In this document: one piece after another, positions 4,480 to 32,000 of the stretch
Layout: every line of letters starts with the position of its first letter
Position numbering within the stretch: the first letter of the stretch is position 1
Assembly: GCF_000341895.1 (NCBI RefSeq)
Contig: NC_020409.1
Span: 2,460,001-2,492,000 of the forward strand
Direction: 5' to 3'
DNA length: 32,000 nucleotides
Origin: Pseudodesulfovibrio piezophilus C1TLV30
GTDB taxonomy: Bacteria; Desulfobacterota; Desulfovibrionia; Desulfovibrionales; Desulfovibrionaceae
Made by a program: the position numbers and the translations under genes
The notes under the pieces: generated by a model
The model's database searches: none
The model's input: only the letters and a program-made list of their open reading frames with translations
What the model was told of the DNA's origin: nothing

Positions 4480-6087
4480 ATGTTTTGTTATCAATGTGAA
4501 CAAACCGCCAAAGGCGGCTGCACCAAAGTTGGCGTGTGTGGCAAGAAAGACACCACTGCATCCCTTCAGGATCTTCTTCTTTACTTGACCAAAGGATTGG
4601 CTCAGGTAGCCGTGGCTGCTCGCAAAGCAGGAATTGAAGACGCGGAAGCTAATCTATTTACCGCAAAAGCGGTTTTTTCCACTCTGACCAATGTTAACTT
4701 TGACGATACCCGTTTTGTCGCGTTGATTGAAGAGTGTGTCGCCAAGCGTGATGCGCTCAAAGCCAGAATTCCTTCTGTTGAATTCTCCGGCCCCGCCATT
4801 TTTATTCCGGCAGCTGACCTGGCTGGCCTCGTGGAGCAGGGGAAAGAGTTCGGTGTCGAAAATGACCCTGAAACCAACCCTGACCTCAAGTCCCTGAAGC
4901 AGACTTTGACCTATGGACTCAAGGGTGTCTGCGCCTATGCTGATCATGCCGCCATTCTGGGCAAGGAAGACAATGAATTGTACGCCAAGATTCAAGGATT
5001 GCTTGCTGCGACACTGTCCACGGACTTGACCTTGGAGCAGTGTGTGGAAGCCGGTCTTGAATGCGGTCGTATCAACATTCGCGCCATGGAGTTGCTGGAC
5101 GATGCCAATACTTCCACGTATGGCCACCCCGAACCTACTGAAGTGAAACTCGGGGCCACGGCAGGCAAGGCCATTCTTGTTTCCGGGCATGACCTCAAGG
5201 ACCTGGCGACATTGCTCAAGCAGACTGAAGGCAAGGGCATCAATATCTATACTCATGGTGAAATGCTGCCTTGTACTGCATATCCCGAGTTGAAGAAATA
5301 CAAGCATCTTGCCGGTCACTACGGCACGGCATGGCAGAATCAGCAGAAGGAGTTCGCAGAATTCCCCGGTGCCATTCTCATGACCACCAACTGCATACAG
5401 AAGCCCACAAATTATATGGATTCGATCTTCACCACCGGCCTTGTCGGTTGGCCCGGAGCCGTTCATGTTTCCAATGACGATTTCACTCCCGTGATCGAAA
5501 AGGCGCTTGCCATGGAAGGGTTCCCTGAAGACACCGAAAAGGGAACTGTTATGACAGGCTTTGCCCGCAATGCTGTCATGTCTGTTGCCGGAACCGTTAT
5601 AGACGCGGTCAAGGCCGGGAATATCAAGCACTTTTTCCTCGTCGGCGGTTGTGACGGAGCCAAGCCCGGGCGTAACTACTATACCGAGTTTGTGGAAAAA
5701 ACCCCTGCCGATACCGTGGTTCTGACACTGGCCTGCGGCAAATTCCGTTTCTTTGACAAGCAGCTTGGCGATATCGGCGGCATCCCCCGTCTGCTCGACA
5801 TCGGTCAGTGCAACGACGCCTATTCCGCTGTCCAGATCGCTCTGGCTTTGGCCGATGCCTTTGATTGCGAAGTCAATGACCTGCCGCTTTCTCTGGTCTT
5901 GTCCTGGTATGAGCAGAAGGCTGTGGCAATCCTGCTCTCACTGCTCGCCCTGGGTATCAAGAATATCAAGCTCGGCCCCACACTGCCTGCGTTCATCACT
6001 CCGAATGTTTTGAACTTCCTGGTCGAAAATTATAATATTGCTCCCATCTCCACACCGGATGAAGACCTCAAGGAAATCCTCGGATAA
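4480..6087 (+). CDS. hcp: hydroxylamine reductase / hybrid cluster protein (class I Hcp)
   Basis: The N-terminus MFCYQCEQTAKGGCTKVGVCGK carries the Cx2Cx7Cx5C cluster motif. The 535-aa length fits Hcp, the protein reads as Hcp along its full length, and AAGGAG lies 7 nt upstream of the ATG. Confidence 0.96.
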   Translation: MFCYQCEQTAKGGCTKVGVCGKKDTTASLQDLLLYLTKGLAQVAVAARKAGIEDAEANLFTAKAVFSTLTNVNFDDTRFVALIEECVAKRDALKARIPSVEFSGPAIFIPAADLAGLVEQGKEFGVENDPETNPDLKSLKQTLTYGLKGVCAYADHAAILGKEDNELYAKIQGLLAATLSTDLTLEQCVEAGLECGRINIRAMELLDDANTSTYGHPEPTEVKLGATAGKAILVSGHDLKDLATLLKQTEGKGINIYTHGEMLPCTAYPELKKYKHLAGHYGTAWQNQQKEFAEFPGAILMTTNCIQKPTNYMDSIFTTGLVGWPGAVHVSNDDFTPVIEKALAMEGFPEDTEKGTVMTGFARNAVMSVAGTVIDAVKAGNIKHFFLVGGCDGAKPGRNYYTEFVEKTPADTVVLTLACGKFRFFDKQLGDIGGIPRLLDIGQCNDAYSAVQIALALADAFDCEVNDLPLSLVLSWYEQKAVAILLSLLALGIKNIKLGPTLPAFITPNVLNFLVENYNIAPISTPDEDLKEILG

Positions 6088-6104
6088 TCCTCAACCATAA
6101 AGCA

Positions 6105-6146
6105 AGCCCCTGCTCCGACACATGTCGAAGCAGGGGCTTTTCTGTT
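6105..6146 (+). terminator. rho-independent terminator after hcp, possibly bidirectional with the convergent gene ending at 6163
   Basis: A perfect 10-bp stem pairs AGCCCCTGCT (6105-6114) with AGCAGGGGCT (6129-6138) around a 14-nt loop, followed by TTTTCTGTT. Confidence 0.75.
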
Positions 6147-6162
6147 GACGGGAGGGGAGATC

Positions 6163-6927
6163 TTAGAACCGAATCAGATAGCGGCGGGCGATCTTGTTGT
6201 AGGTTCCATCCTGGCGCATCTTGCTGATGGCGATTCCCAATGCCTGGAGTATCTCTTCCTTGTGGGGATAGGTCGAGGTTCGGGAAAGAGCGAGGTAGGA
6301 AGGCTTTTTGGTCAGAAGTTTCTTGGGCAGATACACGATGGAGCTGGTGAGTCCCATATCCTTGAGTCGGTAGTATGTGACGTCGATATTTCCCGCATAG
6401 GCATCAATTTCGCCTGAGAGAAGACCCCTCAGTGCTGCGGTCAGGTCAGGGTAGTCCTTGGCTTGCATGATACCTGCATCAAGGGCGTCATGAAATTCCT
6501 TGCCGAGATCAGTCCCGGCGATTCGTCCTATAATCTTCCGTTTGAGGTCGGTGTAGGAGTCAAAGGAAAAGGTGTCACCGACCTTGGTGAAAAGTACATA
6601 TTCACTGAAATGAATGGGAGCATCCCGCATGAAGGAAGCCACCTTGTCCCTGTCCGGGGTAGGGAAGAGCGCAAACGCCCCGACGCATTCGCCGGTTTTC
6701 AGCCTCAGCAGCAGTGTGTCCAGTGGTGCCATGTCTATCTGGATGTCCAATCCGGCCCGTTTGGCTGCTTCAGTGATGACATCCACATCGATCCCGGCAG
6801 GCTGTCCATCTTTTTCCATGGAATAGGGCGCAAAGTCGATATTTGTTACGAAGACAGGGTGTTGTGCCATTGCAGTCGAGGCAAAGATGGTCAGAACGAG
6901 GGCGAAGGCAAAAAGATATGAACGCAT
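6163..6927 (-). CDS. periplasmic solute-binding protein, family 3 (amino-acid/polar solute type)
   Basis: The track ORF spans 6163..7098. I place the start at ATG 6927 (MRSYLFAFALVLTIFASTAMAQ, a signal peptide) with AGGAG upstream. The body matches the SBP_bac_3 style (FAPYSMEKDGQPAGIDVDVI...). Confidence 0.88.
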   Translation of the reverse strand: MRSYLFAFALVLTIFASTAMAQHPVFVTNIDFAPYSMEKDGQPAGIDVDVITEAAKRAGLDIQIDMAPLDTLLLRLKTGECVGAFALFPTPDRDKVASFMRDAPIHFSEYVLFTKVGDTFSFDSYTDLKRKIIGRIAGTDLGKEFHDALDAGIMQAKDYPDLTAALRGLLSGEIDAYAGNIDVTYYRLKDMGLTSSIVYLPKKLLTKKPSYLALSRTSTYPHKEEILQALGIAISKMRQDGTYNKIARRYLIRF

Positions 6928-7055
6928 ACGGTACTCCTGAAAGGATCGGGTTTTGTGACTCTCTACGCGGTTCGACGCGGGGAGACAAGCTGGGGTGTGG
7001 AACTGTGTCGTATTATAATTAAATCCTTTTTCCTTTTGCAGTACAAGTGCTGATA

Positions 7056-10000
7056 ATGGGAGACAAAGCCAGAGGGGTATACAGGGTGAGCAGTTCACAG
7101 GTGCTGGTTATAGACGATAACCCGACATTCAGGGCATTGGTCCAGGTTCACCTGGCCAAGAAGGGGTATGATGTTGTCGAGGCAGACAGCGGACCTGAAG
7201 GAATCGAGCTGTTCATGCACAATCTGCCGGATGTGGTGTTGGTGGATTTGCGTATGCCTGAGATGGACGGACATGAGGTCCTTGTCGATCTGGCTGGGCG
7301 TTCAGCGGAGATACCCCTGATCGTGATAACCGGAGACAGTCAAATAGAGGATGCGATCAAGGCCTTGCGAAACGGGGCTTGGGATTTTGTCACCAAGGGA
7401 GAGGACTTCCTGTCCGAATTGGACAGTGCTCTGACCAAAGGGCTTGAACGGTCCGAGTCAGTCGCTCGGGAGCGGAAGCGCCTTGATCGGGAAATCGCCG
7501 AAAGACGTAAGGCAGAAGCTGCCTTGAAGGGGCAGTTGGAGTTTATTCAGACTGTTATCGATGCGGTTCCGAATCAGATTTTTTATAAGGGACGTGATGG
7601 GGTCTATCTCGGATGCAACAAGGCTTTCGAGGATTTGGTGGGATTGTCGGCCGGAGAGATAATAGGCAAACGGGTTCAGGATATTGCCCCTCCTGGTGAA
7701 CGGGATATGTATGTTCGCAAGGATGAGGAACTCTATTTCGGAACCAAGAATCAGGAATTTGAACAGCGTACCCGATTTGGTGGCGTGGTTCGGGATATTT
7801 TGGTGCGCAAGGCCCTGTTCCGGGATCTGGAAGGACAGCCCAACGGCATTGTCGGTGTCTTGAGTGATATTACCCGTCAGAAGGAGAGTCAGCAGGAATT
7901 GCGGGCAAGCAAGGAACGGTTCCGTTCCCTTCTCGAATCTTCCCCCCTCCCCATCATCATCGCCGATATCGAGGACGGTTCATGCGTCTATGTCAATCAC
8001 CGGGGAGCAGAATATTTCGGAGTGGACCCGACAGAAGCTGTCGGTATGTCCACCATGACGTTTTATCCTGATCATGCGCTGTGGGAGAGGCTGAAGGCCG
8101 GTGTGCTTCAAAACGGTATTTTGTCCGATGAAGAGGTCGAGGTGCGCCGGTTTGACGGAACACATCTCTGGACGCTGGCATCGGCATCATCCATGGAATT
8201 GGATGGCAACCGTGTGATGAGCATTTCCTTTTCCGATCTGACAGAGCGCAAAGATTTGGAAGAAGCGATGGAGAAATTCAAATTCATAGCCAATGCCTCC
8301 CATGACATGATGACTCTAAGTAACAGGGAATTTCTCTATGAGGCGGCGAACCAGGCATATCTGGATCAACATGGGAAGAGTGAAGAGGCCATTCTCGGCC
8401 ATTCCATGACCGATGTTTGGGGAGAGGAGTCCTTCACCAAAGGGATTCAACCGTACTTTACCCAGTGCCTATCCGGCACGGCTGTCAAATATGAAGCGCG
8501 CTTTTCTTTTTCCGGGAAATCTCCCCGTGATTATGAAGTCAGCATGTACCCGTATTTCGGTTCTGATGGTCAAGTTTCTCATGTTGCCACGGTCTCCAAG
8601 GATATTACTGAAGCGCTGGAGGCCAAAGCGGAGATACTGGAAAGCCGGGAACATTTCAGAACCATCTTCGAAAGCTCCTTGGACCCCATCGTTCTTTTTG
8701 ACAGCCGATTGCACGTCTTTGGCATGAATACATCGGCCATCGCCAAGTTCGGCTTCAATCAACAGGCGGTCATGGGACATGACATGAGGAAATTTTTTGT
8801 CTCCACCCCGGATTTTGTTCTTTTCAGAAAAACCGTTATGCCGATTTTGGAAAGTCAGGGAGCCTGGATGGGAGATTGGACATTCGCCAATAGCGCGAAG
8901 ATGGCAATACCGACCGAAACTACCATCTCGGCTATTCCACCCCGTGCAGATGGAGAAGAAAGGGGGTATGTCGCTATTGTGCGGGATATTAGCCCGAGGA
9001 TTCGCGCAGAGAATGAGCGCAGGGAAACCGAGGAACGGTACAGGGCCGTGTTTGAGTCTTCTGGCGCAGCGACGATTCTTGTCGATGAAGAGGGGATTGT
9101 TACCAAGGCCAATCAACGTTTTCTCGACCTTTTTGAAGCCCCGGCCAGTGATATTGAAGGGCGAATTCATTGGAACGAGTTTGTTGCGGATGAAGACAAG
9201 AAATTCATGGAGCAGCGAAAAGAGACATTGGTCCGTGCACCAGGGCATATCTCCCGGTATGAATTTCGATTCATGTCGTTAAGCGGGGAGTTGCGGCATG
9301 TCTTTCTGGAAGCCAGCGTCCTTCCGGGAACTGACCAATCCATCGTGTCCATTACGGATATCACGGATCGAAAACGTGATGAGAATCGGCTGCGTGAAGC
9401 TTTGGATGAAATGGAGGCCATTCAGCAGAATACTATCGTGGGAATCGGGTTGTTCCTTGATGACAAGATTGTGCGCATCAACAAGCGCGGGGCAGAAATT
9501 TTCGGTTATGAGCCGAAAGATATCCTTGGCCGGTCTCCCTCTGCCTTTTTCCTTTCCGAGCGGAGCTACATGAGTTTTCGCAGGCGTTGTGTCTATAACC
9601 TTATCGTTCATGGTGCCTTTCAGTCGGAGCGGTCCTTTCGTCGGGTTGATGCCACCTGGATATGGGTACACCTTTATGCCCAACCAGTGGATAGGACGGA
9701 TTTGAGAAAAGGTGTCATCTGGACCATCCTTGATATCTCGGAGCGTCGGCATAATGAAATAGTGGCCAATATGCTCTATCAGATTTCCAATGCCGTCAGT
9801 TCTACCTCAGACCTTCATGAATTTTATGAACGAATTCACGCGATCCTCAGTCGAACCATCAATGCGACCAATTTTTTTATTGCCCTTTTGGACAAAGATC
9901 AGCAGATGCTGGAATTTTCTTACTTCGAGGATGAGAAAGATGACCTCAAAGGACATGTTCTCGACCTCCGCCAGCATGGGAAAAAAAGCCTTTCTGCCGA

Positions 10001-11513
10001 GGTTATTCGTACCGGGATGCCCCATTTGGTAACAACCGGGAAAGTTCAGGCGAAGAGTGTTTATATCCCGGATAATTCGGCTGCATATGGTTTGGTTATA
10101 CGAAATCGGCAGGATATTCTTGATGCAAATGGGGTCGAGAACAAAGACATGATCGGTACGTGCTCCAGAGTCTGGCTCGGGGTTCCCCTGAAGATCAAGG
10201 GTGAAGTCGTGGGGGTGATGGCTGTTCAGTCCTATGACGACCCGGATCAATTCTCCTCCAAGGACGCGGCCATGATTATTTCGGTTTCAGAGCAGATAGC
10301 CTTGGCCATAGAGCGTAAGGGAAATGAGCGGGATCTTCTGAAGGCAAAGGAACTTGCCGAGGCGGCCAGTCAGTCGAAAAGTGAATTTCTTGCCAATATG
10401 AGCCATGAGGTGCGGACACCGTTGAATGGTGTTTTGGGTATGTTGCAACTCGCTCAGACAACTGACCTGACGGAAGAACAGCGGGATTATGTTGACACGG
10501 CCCTCAGTTCAGGGCGGAGCCTGCTTTCTATTATCAATGATATTCTGGATTTTTCAAAAATAGAGGCGGGTAAACTTGAAGTTGTGACCGAGCCATTTTC
10601 CTTTTCCCAGCTGGTGCAGGATGTTCTGATGACATTCAGAGGACAGGCCAGAAACAAGGGGATTGATCTGGTTCTCGACCTGCCTGATGAAATCCCCGAA
10701 CCTCTGGTAGGTGGCAAGGGCAGGTTGCGGCAGATCCTTTTCAATCTGGTTGGGAATGGCGTGAAATTTACCACTGACGGGCATGTCGGCATCTTTGCAC
10801 AGATCCTGCGGCAGAAAAGGGACGCGGGGACATTGTTGTTGCTCATCTGTGTCGAGGATACGGGTATCGGCATCCCTGACGACAAGATTGAAGATATCTT
10901 TGAGCCATTCACTCAGGTGGACGGATCATATGTCAGGCAACATCAGGGAACAGGATTGGGACTTGGTATCGTCAAACGATTGGTGGATCTTTTAAACGGC
11001 ACCTTGACCATAGATACGGAAGAGGGGCGTGGCACGGCCTTGTATTTGACCATGGAATTCGGGATCGAGTCCATGTCTTTGGCCGAGTCCCTTGGGAATT
11101 TCCCCGATAGAAGTTCGGGCAAGCGGTTCCTGGTTGTGGAAGATAATCGCGTGAATCGCATTCTTGCTGCGCGAATGCTCGCCAAATTGGGGCATGATTC
11201 CGACGTTGCCTGTGATGGATGGGAAGCATTGGAAAAATTGAAAAATGAGGATTTTGACGCCGTATTCATGGATATTCAAATGCCTGGTATGGATGGTGTC
11301 GCAACGACAAGCAGAATCCGGGCGGCCAAGCCCGGTTCAGGAATTAATCCCGAGATTCCCATTGTTGCCATGACTGCTCACGCAATGCTTGGGGATAGGG
11401 AAGTGTTCATTGATAGTGGTATGGATGAGTATATTGCCAAGCCCGTGGAACTGGATGAGATAAGTTCAACCATCGCTCGCCTGTTCACCAGGAAGGGGAA
11501 GTCAATTCAATAA
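7056..11513 (+). CDS. hybrid sensor histidine kinase/response regulator: N-terminal REC, coiled coil, about 6 PAS, GAF, HisKA, HATPase_c, C-terminal REC (no Hpt)
   Basis: The ORF opens at GTG 7047 and the first ATG is at 7056. Supporting motifs are an N-terminal receiver ([10 protein letters not shown]...[12 protein letters not shown]), the H-box [19 protein letters not shown], the G-box [18 protein letters not shown] and a second receiver ([10 protein letters not shown]...[12 protein letters not shown]...KP). A GAF-like segment lies before the H-box. Confidence 0.93.
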
Positions 11514-27470: not shown

Positions 27471-28241
27471 GTGGTTGAGTTCGACACGAATGCCATTCTG
27501 AAGCAGCGCGATTTTTTCCCGCGCGGCATGGTCCAACCCGAGGGAGGGTATCGGTTTTCCCTTGATTCACTTTTGCTGGCCTGTTTTGTTCATCCCGGAC
27601 GGCGTCATTCCGGACTTGATCTTGGGTGCGGTTGTGGGGTGGTGGGGCTTGCCATGTTACTCCGTCGTCCGGATTTGAAGATACTCGGCGTGGAGAGTGA
27701 AGCTCTGTCTGTGGAGTGTGCCCGCGAGAATAGTGTCAGACTCCATTTCTCCAGTATGATGAATGTCACCCAGGGTGATGTGAAGGAATGGCGGCCTGAT
27801 GCTGTGGTGGATTTTGTCGTCTCAAATCCTCCATACAGAAAGCTCGGGCAGGGCCGAGTCAGCCAGGGTGAGAGTCGTCAAGCGGCCCGCTTTGAAGGCA
27901 AGGGAGATTTTGCCGGATTTGCCCGGTGTGCCGCTCTTGCCCTCAAGACACGGGGAAAGTTCACGTTTGTCCATCTCCCCGAGCGCATCCCCGAGTTGCT
28001 GGCAGTGTTGTCGAAAAATGGTCTGGAGCCCAAAAGAATGCGCATGGTCCATGGTCGGGCTGATGAAAATGCCACCATGGTGCTGATCGAAGCAATCAAA
28101 GCCGGAGGGGGTGGTCTGATCGTCGAGCCTCCGCTTGTCCTGCATCAGGGGCATGGGAAACAGACGCAGTTGACCGAGCAGGTGTTGGAATTTTGTCCTT
28201 TTTTACGCTCCAAGCATGAAGGAAGCGATGAGCATGAGTGA
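27471..28241 (+). CDS. SAM-dependent N6-adenine methyltransferase, tRNA1(Val) m6A37 TrmN6/YfiC-like
   Basis: The track ORF spans 27102..28241, but its first 369 nt overlap murJ in another frame. I place the start at GTG 27471, 2 nt after the murJ stop. Supporting motifs are GYRFSLDSLLLA, DLGCGCGVVGLAML and VVSNPPY. Confidence 0.82.
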   Translation: MVEFDTNAILKQRDFFPRGMVQPEGGYRFSLDSLLLACFVHPGRRHSGLDLGCGCGVVGLAMLLRRPDLKILGVESEALSVECARENSVRLHFSSMMNVTQGDVKEWRPDAVVDFVVSNPPYRKLGQGRVSQGESRQAARFEGKGDFAGFARCAALALKTRGKFTFVHLPERIPELLAVLSKNGLEPKRMRMVHGRADENATMVLIEAIKAGGGGLIVEPPLVLHQGHGKQTQLTEQVLEFCPFLRSKHEGSDEHE

Positions 28242-29136
28242 TTTCGTTAGCAAAAGAGTGACCGAATTCTTTGGGAGCGGAAGATTGTACTGTGCTGAGA
28301 CCGTTGTGTCGATCATGGCCGAGGCAGGAGGCCGTGACTCGTCCGACATCGTTCGTATGGCAACCGGATTTTGCAGCGGCGGTGCGCGGACAGATGGTCA
28401 GTGTGGTGCTGTCTCTGGCGCGATCATGGGGCTTGGCCTCTATGCGGGACGGCGCACAGTCGGAGAGGACTATGAGCCAGTGTATGTGTTGGTGCAGGAA
28501 TTTATGGAACGATTTGACAAACAGTACGAGTCTCTGTCCTGTACCAAGCTCTGTGGGTGCAATCTGGCTTCGGATGCAGGCCGTATGCAATTCAAGCAGA
28601 AGCGAGTTGTCGAAACCTGTATTGAAATAGCTGTTTTTGCCATTGAGACAGCGCTCGGTCTACTTCAGGAGCATGGCTTTCTGCCGGATGAGAATGAGAG
28701 TCTCAAGTCCCGGCTCGCTCCATGCGGGCTTTTATGCGGGAAATGTCTGGCATATGAAAGTGGGCCAATTCAACTTTTGAGCGTTGGTCTGGCTGCCACG
28801 CTGGGAGACTCTTTTGGTGTCTATGCCGAACGGTTTCGGCACGCGAATCCGGTATTTGCCCAGTATCCGGCCTTCAGGGAGATGCTGGACTTTTTCAGCC
28901 GGGGAAGCTGTACGGGATGCCGTGGGAGTGGGGGCCTTTTCAGGGAGTGTGCCGTCTCCACATGTGTGGTGGAACACGGGGTGGATTACTGTTACCAATG
29001 TGAGTATTTCCCTTGCGGGAAACATGGTATGCCCGAGGCGCTGGCCGCTGTTTGGAAAAGTCGGAATGAAGCCATGCGTGAGCTTGGTCCAGAGGAATGG
29101 TGCCATCAGTGTCAGGAACAACTCCGTTATCCATGA
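28216..29136 (+). CDS. C_GCAxxG_C_C family domain fused to a DUF3795-like Cys-rich domain
   Basis: The N-terminal half reads YCAETVV...GFCSGGARTDGQCGAVSGAIMGLG...CTKLCGC. The C-terminal half reads CGLLCGKC...CTGCRGSGG...C..STC....DYCYQCEYFPC. The start is 28216, 28228 or 28234, and 28234 has the best spacing to GGAAG. Confidence 0.78.
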   Translation: MKEAMSMSDFVSKRVTEFFGSGRLYCAETVVSIMAEAGGRDSSDIVRMATGFCSGGARTDGQCGAVSGAIMGLGLYAGRRTVGEDYEPVYVLVQEFMERFDKQYESLSCTKLCGCNLASDAGRMQFKQKRVVETCIEIAVFAIETALGLLQEHGFLPDENESLKSRLAPCGLLCGKCLAYESGPIQLLSVGLAATLGDSFGVYAERFRHANPVFAQYPAFREMLDFFSRGSCTGCRGSGGLFRECAVSTCVVEHGVDYCYQCEYFPCGKHGMPEALAAVWKSRNEAMRELGPEEWCHQCQEQLRYP

Positions 29137-29200
29137 CGATAAGCTTTCGATAATGAAAAAATACCTATATGAAAAGATTTAAAACTTATTCGGTAAGCAG

Positions 29201-30544
29201 ATGATAACCAGGATACTTCTTGAAAATTTCATGGCTCATGAGCGCACTGAACTGGAGCTCGGTCCTGGCGTCAATGCGCTGACTGGTCCCAATAATACGG
29301 GTAAGTCTGCTCTTGTCGAAGGGCTGCGGTGCGTGGCGACCAACCCTATCCCGAAGCATTACATTCGGCATGGCGCACAGGAGGCGCGGGTCACGGTGGA
29401 GTTGGAGGATGGTACCAGGATTGTCTGGATACGCAAAAAGCGCTCCTCCGGGTATGAAATGTGGCGTCCTGGTATGGAAGAACCACAGAAGTATTGGAAA
29501 TTTGGTCGGAAACCGCCCGAAGAAGTCCTGGCGGCGCTTCGCCTTGATCTCGTTGAGTTGGAAACCGGTGGTGAAATCGATGTGCATGTGGGCAATCAGC
29601 GCGAACCGGTTTTTCTGCTCAATCAGCCCGGTTCCAATGCAGCAGCTTTCTTTGCCGCTTCCACGGAAGGTGCGCATCTTCTGGCCATGCAAAATCTGCT
29701 CAAGCGCAAGACGCAGGAGACCAAACGCTCCGAAAGGGAATTGGAGGATCGTCTTGACTCTGTTCATGATAGTTTGGACGCATTCTATTCCTTGCCGGGC
29801 ATTGAAATGAACCTGGAAAAGGCGCGGGAGATGGAGGCGCAGGCTCAGACCGTTCAGGATCAGATCCCAAGGCTGGAAAAGACTCTCTCCACCTACGGCT
29901 CTCTGTTGGATGATCTGGCGCGCCAAAGCAGGAGAATTACATCTCTCAATGCTGTTCAACCGGTTCCGGCTCTGACTGAAGTCCGCGATTTGAATTCTTT
30001 GATTACACATATGGGTGATGTTTTTCGAGCGTTTAGCAAAGGCGTGGGAGTTGTTAGGGTACTGTCGGTCTTGCGGGTACTTCCGGAAATTGAGAAAACG
30101 TCCCGTCTGGCTTTGTTTTGTGACCACTTTCGCCAGTTGGCAAAGGATTTGCGTACTGCGAGGGCTGGATGCGCAGCGATGGATGGCTTGAGCGCACCAC
30201 CGGTCCCGGCGGAGACCTCGGGTCTTGCGGAGCTGACAGAAGCTTTGATCACTTCCATATATAGGGCACGTCGGGAGCAACGACGAACTGAAGTCTTGCA
30301 GTCTGTTGTGGAGCCTCCCAGCGTGACCGAGTGCGGGGCGCTGGAGTCCCTGCTTGGAGAAATAGGGTCTCTTGATCTGGACAGGCAGCGGGCGCAGGAG
30401 AGGTTCGATGCATTGGAGAAGCAGTTGGAGACATTGAAGGATGACATCGCATACCGGGTCGGGGAAGTGGGATGCTGTCCGACTTGCGGTGCGGACATCA
30501 ACGCTGAAGCCTTCCTTGATCGGGGGTGTCGTCATGACGGTTGA
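29201..30544 (+). CDS. SMC/SbcC/Rad50-like ABC ATPase, N-terminal half only: Walker A head lobe, long coiled coil, CxxC zinc-hook-like motif at the C-terminus
   Basis: The N-terminus reads MITRILLENFMAHERTELELGPGVNALTGPNNTGKSALVEGL, with Walker A at nt 29285-29308. About 270 aa of charged helical sequence follow. The protein ends ...VGEVGCCPTCGADINAEAFLDRGCRHDG, with CPTC at nt 30476-30487. I find no signature (LSGG) or Walker B motif. Confidence 0.85.
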   Translation: MITRILLENFMAHERTELELGPGVNALTGPNNTGKSALVEGLRCVATNPIPKHYIRHGAQEARVTVELEDGTRIVWIRKKRSSGYEMWRPGMEEPQKYWKFGRKPPEEVLAALRLDLVELETGGEIDVHVGNQREPVFLLNQPGSNAAAFFAASTEGAHLLAMQNLLKRKTQETKRSERELEDRLDSVHDSLDAFYSLPGIEMNLEKAREMEAQAQTVQDQIPRLEKTLSTYGSLLDDLARQSRRITSLNAVQPVPALTEVRDLNSLITHMGDVFRAFSKGVGVVRVLSVLRVLPEIEKTSRLALFCDHFRQLAKDLRTARAGCAAMDGLSAPPVPAETSGLAELTEALITSIYRARREQRRTEVLQSVVEPPSVTECGALESLLGEIGSLDLDRQRAQERFDALEKQLETLKDDIAYRVGEVGCCPTCGADINAEAFLDRGCRHDG

Positions 30545-31493
30545 TGTCGTTGAAGCCAAAGGGCTTTTCCTGATCGCGGACCCGCATCTGGCGGACACTC
30601 CGCCGGGTCAACGGCTGGATGGTTATCTCGATCAGATCATGAACAAGATGGCCGCGTGTCTGGATCGGGCGCGGGAGTTGGACCTCGCCGTGGTTTTTCT
30701 TGGCGACATGTTTCATTGGCCTCGTGACAACTCCAACAAGATGCTTGTGGATCTCATTGCGCTTTTTGGCTCCCGGCAGGGCAATGATCAGGTCTGGGCA
30801 TTAGTGGGAAATCACGACAAGTATCAGGCCCGTTTTACCGATGACGTAAGTCTTGCTGTTCTGGAGGCGGCTGGAGTGCTTCGACTCATGAAGGAGGATG
30901 GTCCCCAGTTTCGTCTGAAGACGGACAAAGGAGATGTCCTGGTCGGTGCCAGCCCTGACGGGACTCCATTGCCCAAAGGATACGAAAAGCAGGAGGGTGA
31001 CCCTGACACCGTGATCTGGCTTTCCCATCATAATATCCAGTTCCCTGAATTTATGGAGAAAGCTTACTCCATCAAAGAGTTGCCGGGTATTGACTGGCTG
31101 ATAAACGGGCACATACATCGCCCGCAGCCGACCTTGACCAAAGGGCAGACTTCGTGGGCCAATCCCGGCAATGTGACCCGGCTCACTTTTACGCGCATAT
31201 CCATGACTCGGGAACCGGCGGCGGCCATCTGGACCCCCGGATGTGGTGATCTGGAAAAATGGGTTATTCCCTTTGAACCTTTTGCAGCGGTCTTTCCTGA
31301 TCAGGAATTACCACCTGAAGAAGTTCAGGTGGAAGGGGAGTCTGATTACGTGAAGGGACTGGAAAGACTGGCCTGGCAACGGACACAAGAAGGCATGGGG
31401 TTGAAAGAGTTTTTGACTGATAATGTCCCTCGTGAGACCCGTGAAGGGGAACTCATATGGGAGCTTTACGAGGAGGTTGTACGTGGTGAATGA
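30534..31493 (+). CDS. calcineurin-like metallophosphoesterase, Mre11/SbcD-type nuclease motifs intact
   Basis: I place the start at ATG 30534, overlapping the upstream gene by 11 nt. The five motifs are LIADPHL (DxH), FLGDMFH (GDxxH), LVGNHD (GNHD), WLSHHN (H) and INGHIHRP (GHxH). Confidence 0.87.
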   Translation: MTVDVVEAKGLFLIADPHLADTPPGQRLDGYLDQIMNKMAACLDRARELDLAVVFLGDMFHWPRDNSNKMLVDLIALFGSRQGNDQVWALVGNHDKYQARFTDDVSLAVLEAAGVLRLMKEDGPQFRLKTDKGDVLVGASPDGTPLPKGYEKQEGDPDTVIWLSHHNIQFPEFMEKAYSIKELPGIDWLINGHIHRPQPTLTKGQTSWANPGNVTRLTFTRISMTREPAAAIWTPGCGDLEKWVIPFEPFAAVFPDQELPPEEVQVEGESDYVKGLERLAWQRTQEGMGLKEFLTDNVPRETREGELIWELYEEVVRGE

Positions 31494-31512
31494 TAATCCC
31501 AATGGAGCAGGC

Positions 31513-31809
31513 ATGAATCCGGACGTGACGCTGGAGCAGGAGTTGAACGGCTTGCGGCGGCAGTATGAACATCTGCGCGATCAGCGGGTGCGGGCCGAAA
31601 CGCAGGTGGCGGATTTATCCGGCCGCCTTGATGCCCTCAAGGCCCAGGCTTTGGAGGAGTACGGGACCAGTGACCCGAAAGAACTGCAACGTCTTTTACA
31701 GGATAAACGTCAAGAAAATGAGCGTATTGTCGCAGAATATCGCGAACATATACAAACGGTTCAGAGTGATCTGGCACAGGTCGAAAACCGCACGGATGGA
31801 GACGGCTAG
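31513..31809 (+). CDS. 98-aa all-helical/coiled-coil protein
   Basis: ATG 31513 has a GGAG 5 nt upstream; in-frame GTGs at 31483 and 31486 are alternatives. The sequence MNPDVTLEQELNGLRRQYEHLRDQRVRAETQVADLSGRLDALKAQALEEYG...ERIVAEYREHIQTVQSDLAQVE is heptad-like and highly charged. Confidence 0.6.
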   Translation: MNPDVTLEQELNGLRRQYEHLRDQRVRAETQVADLSGRLDALKAQALEEYGTSDPKELQRLLQDKRQENERIVAEYREHIQTVQSDLAQVENRTDGDG

Positions 31810-32000
31810 TGGAAACTCCCTTTCCCGGAACGGATTTGAGGGCATTGGAGAGGCGTCACGACCGCCTGTCTGCCAAAGCCGAGGCGTTGCATGCGGAGCA
31901 TGGACGAGTGCGGAAACAGCTTGGAGCCATTCAGAACTTTCTCGTATTGGCTCCTGCGGCCAAGGATCGTTTGGAAGAGTTGTCCAAGACTCTTTTCGGC
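31809..32000 (+). CDS. 5' part of a further coiled-coil protein that runs off the window; possibly the descending coil and C-terminal ATPase lobe of the split SbcC-like protein
   Basis: This ORF is absent from the track because it has no stop in the window. GTG 31809 overlaps the upstream stop (TAGTG) and has GGAGA 6 nt upstream. The frame opens only after the TGA at 31767-31769. My translation is VETPFPGTDLRALERRHDRLSAKAEALHAEHGRVRKQLGAIQNFLVLAPAAKDRLEELSKTLFG, 64 codons with no stop. Confidence 0.5.
   Translation, partial: METPFPGTDLRALERRHDRLSAKAEALHAEHGRVRKQLGAIQNFLVLAPAAKDRLEELSKTLFG

Follow-up and report, generated by a model that had tools for sequence, protein, structure and literature searches.

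A Rad50-like ATPase gene that ends where the arm of the protein should turn back raises the question whether it is the remnant of a broken gene or a working subunit whose other half lies elsewhere. Such a gene, g1, opens a group of four overlapping genes (g1 to g4) at the end of a 32,000-nucleotide (nt) stretch of Pseudodesulfovibrio piezophilus C1TLV30. This stretch, at its full length, is called the window; coordinates are those of the whole window, and g1 to g4 and their motifs lie on its + strand. A preliminary description of this DNA had presented g1 as half of an ATP-binding cassette (ABC) ATPase followed by a phosphoesterase and two helical proteins, and had offered two readings, a multi-subunit Rad50-like complex and a Lamassu-type defence system. 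We conclude, with a probability of about 0.6, that the products of the four genes together make up a single non-canonical Mre11-Rad50/SbcCD-like machine, a DNA end/hairpin nuclease acting in chromosomal repair. The two halves of its ATPase are separate polypeptides in P. piezophilus and are found fused, in reversed order, in many relatives.

ABC ATPase head

The g1 gene (29201..30544) encodes 447 amino acids (aa) comprising the N-terminal half of the ATPase. As first described, it contains a Walker A motif, GPNNTGKS, and a CPTC motif 18 aa before its stop, and has neither an ABC signature nor a Walker B motif. It is followed by g2 (30534..31493, 319 aa, ATG start), encoding an Mre11/SbcD-type metallophosphoesterase (MPE), by g3 (31483..31809), encoding a small helix-(E/K)xYGTxDxxEL-helix protein, and by g4, the C-terminal half of the ATPase, of which the first 64 codons (31809..32000, GTG start) lie in the window.

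The Walker A motif spans g1 residues 29-36 (29285..29308), and G29, N31, N32, G34, K35 and S36 are invariant. A second family motif, DVHVGNQREPVF (residues 127-138; 29579..29614), carries the presumed Q-loop glutamine; D127, H129, G131, Q133, R134, P136 and F138 are invariant. This motif recurs in the fused relatives described below and was used as the pattern for a genome scan with one genome per species. The head of g1 was recognized as AAA_23 (Pfam, 1.9e-12), and in a profile search of the PDB it matched the heads of Smc6, Rad50 and RecN. Following structure prediction with AlphaFold2 (AF2), the top Foldseek matches of the head were to P. furiosus Rad50, then to Smc5/6, RecN, SMC and RecF.

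The complete g4 was obtained from metagenome data. An exact-protein look-up of g2 retrieved three Joint Genome Institute (JGI) contigs carrying the locus, and on the 99-kb contig L001 (11276-11929) g4 encodes 217 aa and is followed by peroxiredoxin genes. Of the elements missing from g1, the preliminary description had proposed that the downstream frame might supply the ABC signature, Walker B and D-loop. All are present in the 217-aa protein, as signature SGQGGS and Walker B/D-loop FLVLDEQD (PFLVLDEQD), together with an H-loop, VISHH; these motifs are invariant in 13 homologues. Moreover, g4 aligns with positions 118-199 of the 220 of SMC_N (Pfam), with the C-terminal third of PADLOC mad3, a coil-less ABC ATPase (3.8e-8), and, as a profile against the PDB, with the cohesin SMC head from Walker B to H-loop (1e-4). 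With the N-lobe in g1 and the C-lobe in g4, the two proteins thus correspond to the two lobes of one Rad50-like ABC ATPase head.

This head is remote from the curated families. No NCBIfam threshold was reached by any of the locus proteins: among Rad50 models the highest score was that of Rad50_Sulf (50 bits, where the cut-off is 1000), the SbcC models matched neither g1 nor g4, and the best match of the g1 N-lobe was ASRP (3e-15; 56 bits against a cut-off of 300 bits). Nor do g1 and g4 form a Rad50-type single chain with an antiparallel intramolecular coiled coil between the lobes, as the lobes are separated by two genes.

Circularly permuted relatives

Relatives of g4 were collected by a HMMER search of 1.84 billion cluster representatives with a g4 profile (E <= 0.001), the complete g4 being represented by P0241, an identical database protein of P. 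piezophilus. The search gave 1,147 matches (clusters at 50% identity). Among the best 150 of these, 51 were short like g4, seven had 389-531 aa and 92 had 590-782 aa. The g4-like domain was located at the N-terminus (approximately residues 5-230) in all 92 long relatives, and none of the best 150 is a long protein of canonical order with the C-lobe as its last domain. Pfam was run on ten g4-profile matches, of which six belong to the group of 92 long relatives. Position 1 of AAA_23/AAA_15 fell at residue ~221-257 in each of these six, and five had a further match to a C-lobe model (SMC_N 145-213 or AAA_21 ~250-299) ahead of the N-lobe, at residues ~125-203. Using a regular expression, Walker B was found ahead of Walker A in 84 of the 92. 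A terminal CPxC was present in 80, with a median tail of 14 residues, and at least two His/Cys were counted in 65 of these 80 tails.

In fused chains such as WP_173049974.1, the order is C-lobe, short linker, N-lobe, arm and C-terminal CPxC. The family motifs GxGGS, DExDCW, ISHH, NFMSH, GxNDxGKS, IRHG and DVHxGxQKxPxF are present, as are proline-punctuated repeats, and the two halves of the fused proteins match g4 and g1, respectively, by phmmer. Judged by this domain order, the fused relatives are a circular permutation of Rad50, in which the native termini are joined and new termini lie at the tip of the arm. Most of the returning strand is gone from the fused chain, and the split form likewise has no returning coil.

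The loci are related in the same way as the proteins. Fused loci are arranged g3-[g4-g1]-g2 and split loci g1-g2-g3-g4, two rotations of one cycle. The permutation may go back to an operon that was duplicated in tandem and then underwent fusion and loss, which would yield exactly this shared cyclic order. The g2 place of fused loci is occupied by a g2 homologue in L015 (1.4e-36) and by annotated metallophosphoesterases on Variovorax SRS16 plasmid 2 and Bosea pANAM02; on the Methylorubrum extorquens AM1 megaplasmid, g4-like, g1-like and g2-like parts follow each other in the order of the fused loci.

When a fused member was compared with PLSDB by tblastn, matches were obtained on 25 plasmids of 0.25-1.3 Mb, with hosts including Pseudomonas, Variovorax, Vibrio, Bosea, Alteromonas, Aeromonas, Rhizobium and Methylorubrum. 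The usual neighbours of the plasmid module are helicase, topoisomerase III, SLT, DUF1064, RecJ, LigD or ParAB genes. On three megaplasmids, Pseudomonas pBASL58 (L020 8754-9656), Vibrio vulnificus FORC_036 (L021 8965-9837) and Alteromonas pKD01 (L024 6698-7474), the protein in the g2 position carries none of the metal-binding motifs. All three proteins align across the C-terminal helical region, and the ATPase motifs at these loci are intact. Homology to g2 was supported by phmmer for pBASL58 and Vibrio; for Alteromonas it is based on position and alignment only. The motif-less protein looks like a dead Mre11-like subunit.

Arm and CPxC tip of g1

In the AF2 model of g1 (predicted local distance difference test, pLDDT, 73), long helices were predicted at residues 155-196 and 201-252, and the last helix (379-423) runs into CPTCG. 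The arm between them (residues ~253-378; 29957..30334) is made up of proline-delimited helical repeats of ~39 aa, with predicted helices of ~27 aa each at 262-288, 301-327 and 340-368 and proline-rich loops of 12 aa in between. Homologues of g1 contain 3-7 such repeats and differ from one another by whole units, with lengths of 410, 447-452, 480-486, 521-533 or 564 aa. In these homologues, Pro-Pro motifs occur every ~39 residues, and a 40-aa indel is visible in the alignment.

Compared with this variable arm, the partner proteins are short. For pairing with it, g4 has only an N-terminal helix of ~40 aa, and g3 two helices of ~40 aa each; the alignable cores of both are constant in length in loci where g1 spans 410-564 aa. 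Because g3 and g4 keep their lengths while g1 gains or loses repeats, the distal arm would have no encoded antiparallel partner. The first reading of the preliminary description, a multi-subunit Rad50-like complex with ascending and descending coils joined at the hook, therefore needs correction. Its missing C-lobe was found in g4, the split is ancient and conserved, and the nuclease is of the Mre11 type; the joined coils are not supported, since no strand returns.

At the tip, the zinc-hook-like CPTC (g1 residues 426-429; 30476..30487) is followed by G430 and an 18-aa tail containing C443 and H445. Residues G424, C426, P427, C429 and G430 are invariant across g1 homologues. All 118 full-length split homologues listed stop 14-27 aa after CPxC, and 100 of the 118 have at least two His/Cys in the tail. 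With the g1 profile, positions 367-436 gave matches (E ~1e-3) to the PDB entries 6zff and 1l8d, both Rad50 zinc hooks. The putative zinc site may be a hook formed in trans or a C2-H/C2 knuckle formed in cis.

Predicted nuclease and small helical protein

The g2 protein carries all five phosphoesterase motifs that had been attributed to it (DPH, GD, GNHD, HH and GHIH) and was recognized as Metallophos (Pfam, 2.4e-8). Residues D16, H18, G57, D58, G92, N93, H94, D95, H165, H166, G192, H193 and H195 are invariant in 17 homologues. Its structure was modelled by AF2 from the 17-sequence alignment (pLDDT 78; predicted template modelling score, pTM, 0.75), and the top 50 PDB matches of the model in Foldseek were all Mre11/SbcD, with a template modelling score over the query (TMq) of 0.45-0.58. 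The best was M. jannaschii Mre11, 3av0_A (6e-10, TMq 0.57). None of the curated Mre11/SbcD thresholds was reached by g2 (Mre11_Pyroc, 14 bits against a cut-off of 600), and its best NCBIfam match was PdeM (25.5 bits against a cut-off of 150). Taken together, motifs and model show g2 to be a predicted two-metal nuclease of the Mre11 fold with every catalytic motif intact.

At the C-terminus of g2, helices were predicted by AF2 at residues 271-282, 290-297 and 303-316, and the last 50 residues form a strongly conserved helix-loop-helix, GLERLAW...GLK.FL...LIWELYEEV. At this position Mre11 carries its Rad50-binding domain. The region could be aligned with residues 337-368 of M. jannaschii Mre11, although very weakly. 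No other subunit is as well conserved in the window's clade as g2, with identities of 58-81%.

Proteins of the g3 family consist of a helix of ~45 aa, the conserved (E/K)xYGTxDxxEL turn and a helix of ~40 aa with a conserved N and EY. No match to curated families was obtained in Pfam, PADLOC or NCBIfam, apart from coiled-coil noise in PADLOC (E >= 0.01). A g3 homologue stands directly before the C-lobe gene or domain in the loci examined; it was not detected on the Methylorubrum extorquens AM1 megaplasmid. At one locus (L017 6373-6999) the g3 homologue is tandemly duplicated within a single protein of 208 aa, whose gene immediately precedes that of a fused ATPase. The surrounding genes are PilMNO, topoisomerase III and primase-like genes, and no MPE adjoins the ATPase there.

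Gene boundaries

The overlaps are 11 nt between g1 and g2, as originally noted, and 1 nt (TAGTG) between g3 and g4, where the GTG start at 31809 sits at the preceding stop as described. The gene between them had been described as a helical protein of 98 aa with its own Shine-Dalgarno sequence. The helical frame ending at 31809 was retained and its start was revised: translation from ATG 31513 gives 98 aa, while GTG 31483 gives 108 aa and is preceded by a strong Shine-Dalgarno sequence, GAGGAGG. The residues added, NDNPNGAG, align with NNNPNQTG of a homologue. Based on these sequence features, GTG 31483 is most likely the start of g3. It creates a second 11-nt overlap, between g2 and g3, so that all four genes look translationally coupled.

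Upstream of g1, the intergenic gap of 64 nt (29137..29200) has a guanine + cytosine (GC) content of 28%, compared with 52% for the window. The gap had been taken as the border of the cluster. Its length and composition were confirmed; since only 3 nt are found at this place in P. mercurii ND132, it is not a conserved boundary and is specific to the lineage of the window. No convincing sigma-70 promoter was found on the + strand of the gap, a scan for promoters and terminators was at chance level, and an Rfam scan of the window detected no RNA family.

The upstream neighbour (28216-29136) encodes a 306-aa cysteine-rich protein with C_GCAxxG_C_C and DUF3795, and its synteny with the cluster is shared by two species of Pseudodesulfovibrio. 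A 750-aa product of a 'eukaryotic' TRINITY transcript, P0069, consists of this C_GCAxxG/DUF3795 protein joined to g1. The fusion is most likely due to bacterial contamination or readthrough in the transcriptome assembly; it suggests co-transcription of the DUF3795 gene and g1.

Conservation and genomic context

Using tblastn, the order g1-g2-g3-g4 was found in ten of ten further genome loci, with g1 identities of 30-44%. These loci belong to Desulfovibrionaceae, Desulfobacca, Syntrophobacteraceae, Desulfacinum and one unclassified bin. Together with P. mercurii ND132 and L018, this makes 12 further loci in Desulfobacterota with the order, mostly set among housekeeping genes. The 118 full-length g1 homologues listed have 405-468 aa; the g4 homologues listed have 198-243 aa, and none carries a precomputed Pfam domain.

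In P. mercurii ND132, where the operon runs from DND132_2133 onward, the upstream set is identical, fpg-murJ-methyltransferase-DUF3795. In its locus (L014 7092-8001), murJ, the methyltransferase gene, the DUF3795 gene and g1-g4 form one packed block on the same strand. The GC content of the cluster (54-56%) is near that of its surroundings. Histidine kinases, a hybrid-cluster protein, HD-GYP and GGDEF proteins and an ABC transporter are encoded in the remainder of the window, and no defence or mobile genes were seen among the neighbours of the Pseudodesulfovibrio operon. In other lineages, neighbours read, by eye and from their first residues only, like NuoF/NuoG-type, Trk-type and ATP-synthase-beta genes.

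A distant split variant in the window's order was found at L018 4081-12624. It comprises a seven-repeat g1 of 564 aa, an MPE, g3 and a g4 with an unfamiliar C-terminal extension of ~310 aa. Genes for 585-aa and 723-aa proteins and then a NACHT protein follow downstream, and DUF6361 lies upstream. This locus may be a defence-island version.

A phage origin was rejected: no close relative was found in phage collections when g4 was compared with IMG/VR and a fused protein with GenBank phages. A second scan of IMG/VR detected distant relatives only, on very large 'viral' contigs. On two of these (L028, ~4989-10309, 86 kb; L029, ~4992-10064, 470 kb), a distant g1-like gene is directly followed by an MPE gene, with a g4-like C-lobe gene ~3 kb further downstream; both are jumbo-phage-like or megaplasmid-like elements on which the split arrangement is looser.

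Comparison with known systems

The closest known systems are Mre11-Rad50 and SbcCD, including T4 gp46/47 and B. subtilis SbcEF (YhaNO). Like these, the present family combines a two-metal nuclease of the Mre11 fold, which has motifs I-V followed by a C-terminal helical region, with an ABC head in which a Rad50-like N-lobe is joined by the signature, Walker B, D-loop and H-loop. The helical arm likewise ends in CPxCG, and nuclease and ATPase genes lie in one operon, apparently coupled in translation. In contrast to the known systems, the ATPase consists of two polypeptides or, in the relatives, of a C-lobe-then-N-lobe fusion. The chain stops 14-27 aa past CPxC, and no coiled-coil strand returns; the distal arm is made of 3-7 proline-delimited repeats of ~39 aa instead of a continuous coil. 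An additional conserved subunit, g3, is present, the nuclease gene lies between the ATPase halves, and scores are far under the curated Rad50/SbcC/Mre11 thresholds.

The natural rearrangements known for this gene pair are Mre11-to-Rad50 fusions (PMC3175470). Those of the Mimivirus R555 type resemble the present family as rearranged gene pairs that also occur on plasmids and megaplasmids; in them the nuclease precedes a Rad50 of canonical order as an N-terminal fusion, whereas here the ATPase itself is cut at the arm tip and is either split or permuted. In the SPN3US phage paper, 'split' refers to sbcC and sbcD genes lying apart and not to a divided ATPase. RloC has a Rad50-like head with CxxC in a coiled-coil insert and differs by its anticodon-nuclease domain; both RloC and the archaea-specific SMC-related proteins (ASRP) are single chains in canonical order, unlike the split/permuted family. 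No description of a split or permuted Rad50 was found in the searchable literature, though the ABC-ATPase classification of Krishnan et al. (2020) may contain a prior mention, and the family is apparently undescribed.

With Lamassu (LmuA-LmuC-LmuB / DdmABC), the family shares a CxxC SMC-like ATPase akin to SbcC, a small helical protein encoded just ahead of the ATPase (C-lobe) gene, and relatives on mobile elements. It differs in that LmuB is a single chain with an intramolecular coiled coil and LmuA an effector with a specific C-terminal domain; here the partner is a complete Mre11-like protein, no LmuA or LmuC homology was seen and the site is syntenic and housekeeping.

Alternative explanations

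The reading of g1 as a remnant of a decayed sbcC pseudogene with an unrelated phosphoesterase inserted is barely conceivable. Its sole support was the first impression of g1 as half an ABC ATPase, and the preliminary description had named frameshift fragments as the alternative. The same four intact open reading frames recur in the same order across lineages at 30-57% identity, with conserved start/stop overlaps, intact motifs and lengths kept in hundreds of homologues, and no canonical-order long protein ending in a C-lobe occurs among the best 150 of the 1,147 g4 relatives. A pseudogene was therefore rejected. A defence system of the Lamassu or ABC-three-component type, the second reading originally offered, would use g1 and g4 as a hook-bearing SMC-like sensor which, with g3 as the middle component, detects foreign DNA ends and unleashes g2 as the effector. 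We consider it unlikely, and what survives of it is a resemblance. PADLOC, which had been proposed as a check for a known defence system, returned LmuB models for g1 (3.7e-12, residues 2-435), and LmuB is likewise a CxxC SMC thought to derive from SbcC (PMC12663957). The position of g3 directly before the C-lobe is that of LmuC before LmuB (PMC12663957), relatives are carried by megaplasmids and mobile-element-like regions, in the company of methylase, Lar, SLT and TopoIII genes, and the split variant L018 adjoins NACHT and DUF6361 genes. The LmuB matches of g1 (3.7e-12 and weaker) are, however, comparable in strength to its matches to GajA, AriA and PtuA heads; all of these look like generic ABC-head matches. 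No LmuB model is matched by g4, PADLOC gave nothing at all for g2, and LmuA and LmuC have no match in the locus. As a full Mre11-fold protein with a conserved, partner-binding-like C-terminal region, g2 does not resemble a swappable effector, and the relatives with a dead nuclease would be left without one. The surroundings also point away from defence: the Pseudodesulfovibrio operon shows fpg-murJ synteny, normal GC and a neighbourhood free of defence and mobile genes, and the neighbours in other Desulfobacterota read like nuo, trk or atp genes. This chromosomal, syntenic, housekeeping setting favours repair over defence.

Equally improbable for the window, in our view, is an SMC-like complex for DNA tethering or replicon maintenance, in which the arms would bridge sister replicons or megaplasmid copies and the Mre11-like subunit would mainly be a structural clamp. 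Such a role would fit the pBASL58, Vibrio vulnificus and Alteromonas g2 homologues, which have lost the metal motifs while the fold-defining and C-terminal regions and the ATPase motifs are kept, and the location of the module near parAB, recJ, ligD, helicase and topoisomerase genes on plasmids of 0.25-1.3 Mb. In the window's clade, on the other hand, every catalytic residue of g2 is invariant and g2 is the best-conserved subunit, which argues for selection on catalysis there. As tethering is also carried out by canonical Mre11-Rad50, this proposal overlaps with the repair nuclease. The dead-nuclease megaplasmid members would be able to work without cutting, and for them a tethering or maintenance role is possible.

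Several observations count against an Mre11-Rad50-like repair nuclease and bear on its parts. As a single sequence, the g1 hook segment retrieved coiled-coil and zinc-ribbon noise only from the PDB, and the extra His/Cys in the tail mean that the zinc site could be a knuckle in cis and not a hook in trans. Megaplasmid g2 homologues that lack the nuclease motifs imply that nuclease activity is not essential throughout the family, and the many fused relatives in mobile-element-like regions leave room for a role in conflict or maintenance.

Proposed mechanism and significance

By analogy with Mre11-Rad50/SbcCD, the complex is most likely an ATP-dependent DNA end/hairpin nuclease. In the mechanism proposed, g1 and g4 would assemble in trans into the Rad50-like head, with a neck formed by g1 155-196 and g4 ~8-48 as the sole conventional two-chain coiled coil. 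The C-terminal helices of g2 would dock on this neck, as in Mre11/SbcD, and g3 would pack on the next helix of g1. Beyond it, the repeat rod could pair in parallel with that of a second protomer or stand alone. Binding of ATP would lead to engagement of two heads, and the CPxC tips would join two arms via zinc. The complex would bind DNA ends or hairpins, which head engagement would clamp so as to place the nuclease for ATP-dependent cutting. In Pseudodesulfovibrio this would be a chromosomal housekeeping repair function.

A wider proposal, to which we assign somewhat less than even odds, is that a family of Rad50/SMC-like ATPases in circularly permuted or split form is here recognised for the first time, its chains ending at the zinc motif of the tip. 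Their arm would not be an intramolecular antiparallel coil; instead, quantised repeats of 39 aa would make up a segmented rod, present as a zinc-stapled parallel pair or as a single chain and completed by a g3 hairpin subunit and a live or dead Mre11-like subunit, with split and fused forms linked by duplication and permutation of the operon. To our knowledge, every characterised Rad50, SbcC, SMC, MukB, RecN and LmuB folds back, one chain providing both strands of the arm. Models of signalling between the head and the hook or hinge on ATP hydrolysis rest on this fold-back topology. Here, a widespread natural family, ranging from Desulfobacterota chromosomes to proteobacterial megaplasmids, has a chain that stops exactly at the arm tip, lacks most of the returning strand and tolerates a head divided between two proteins, and thereby offers a naturally available means of testing on which parts of the arm Mre11-Rad50 function depends. 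It would also be a clear-cut case of a circular permutation that arose from the rearrangement of an entire operon. About 1,000 g4-type proteins, mostly hypothetical or unnamed and without a Pfam domain, and the g3 proteins, without a Pfam domain or informative annotation, become readable as subunits of Mre11-Rad50-like complexes. For the sulfate reducers, the operon may be their equivalent of SbcCD.

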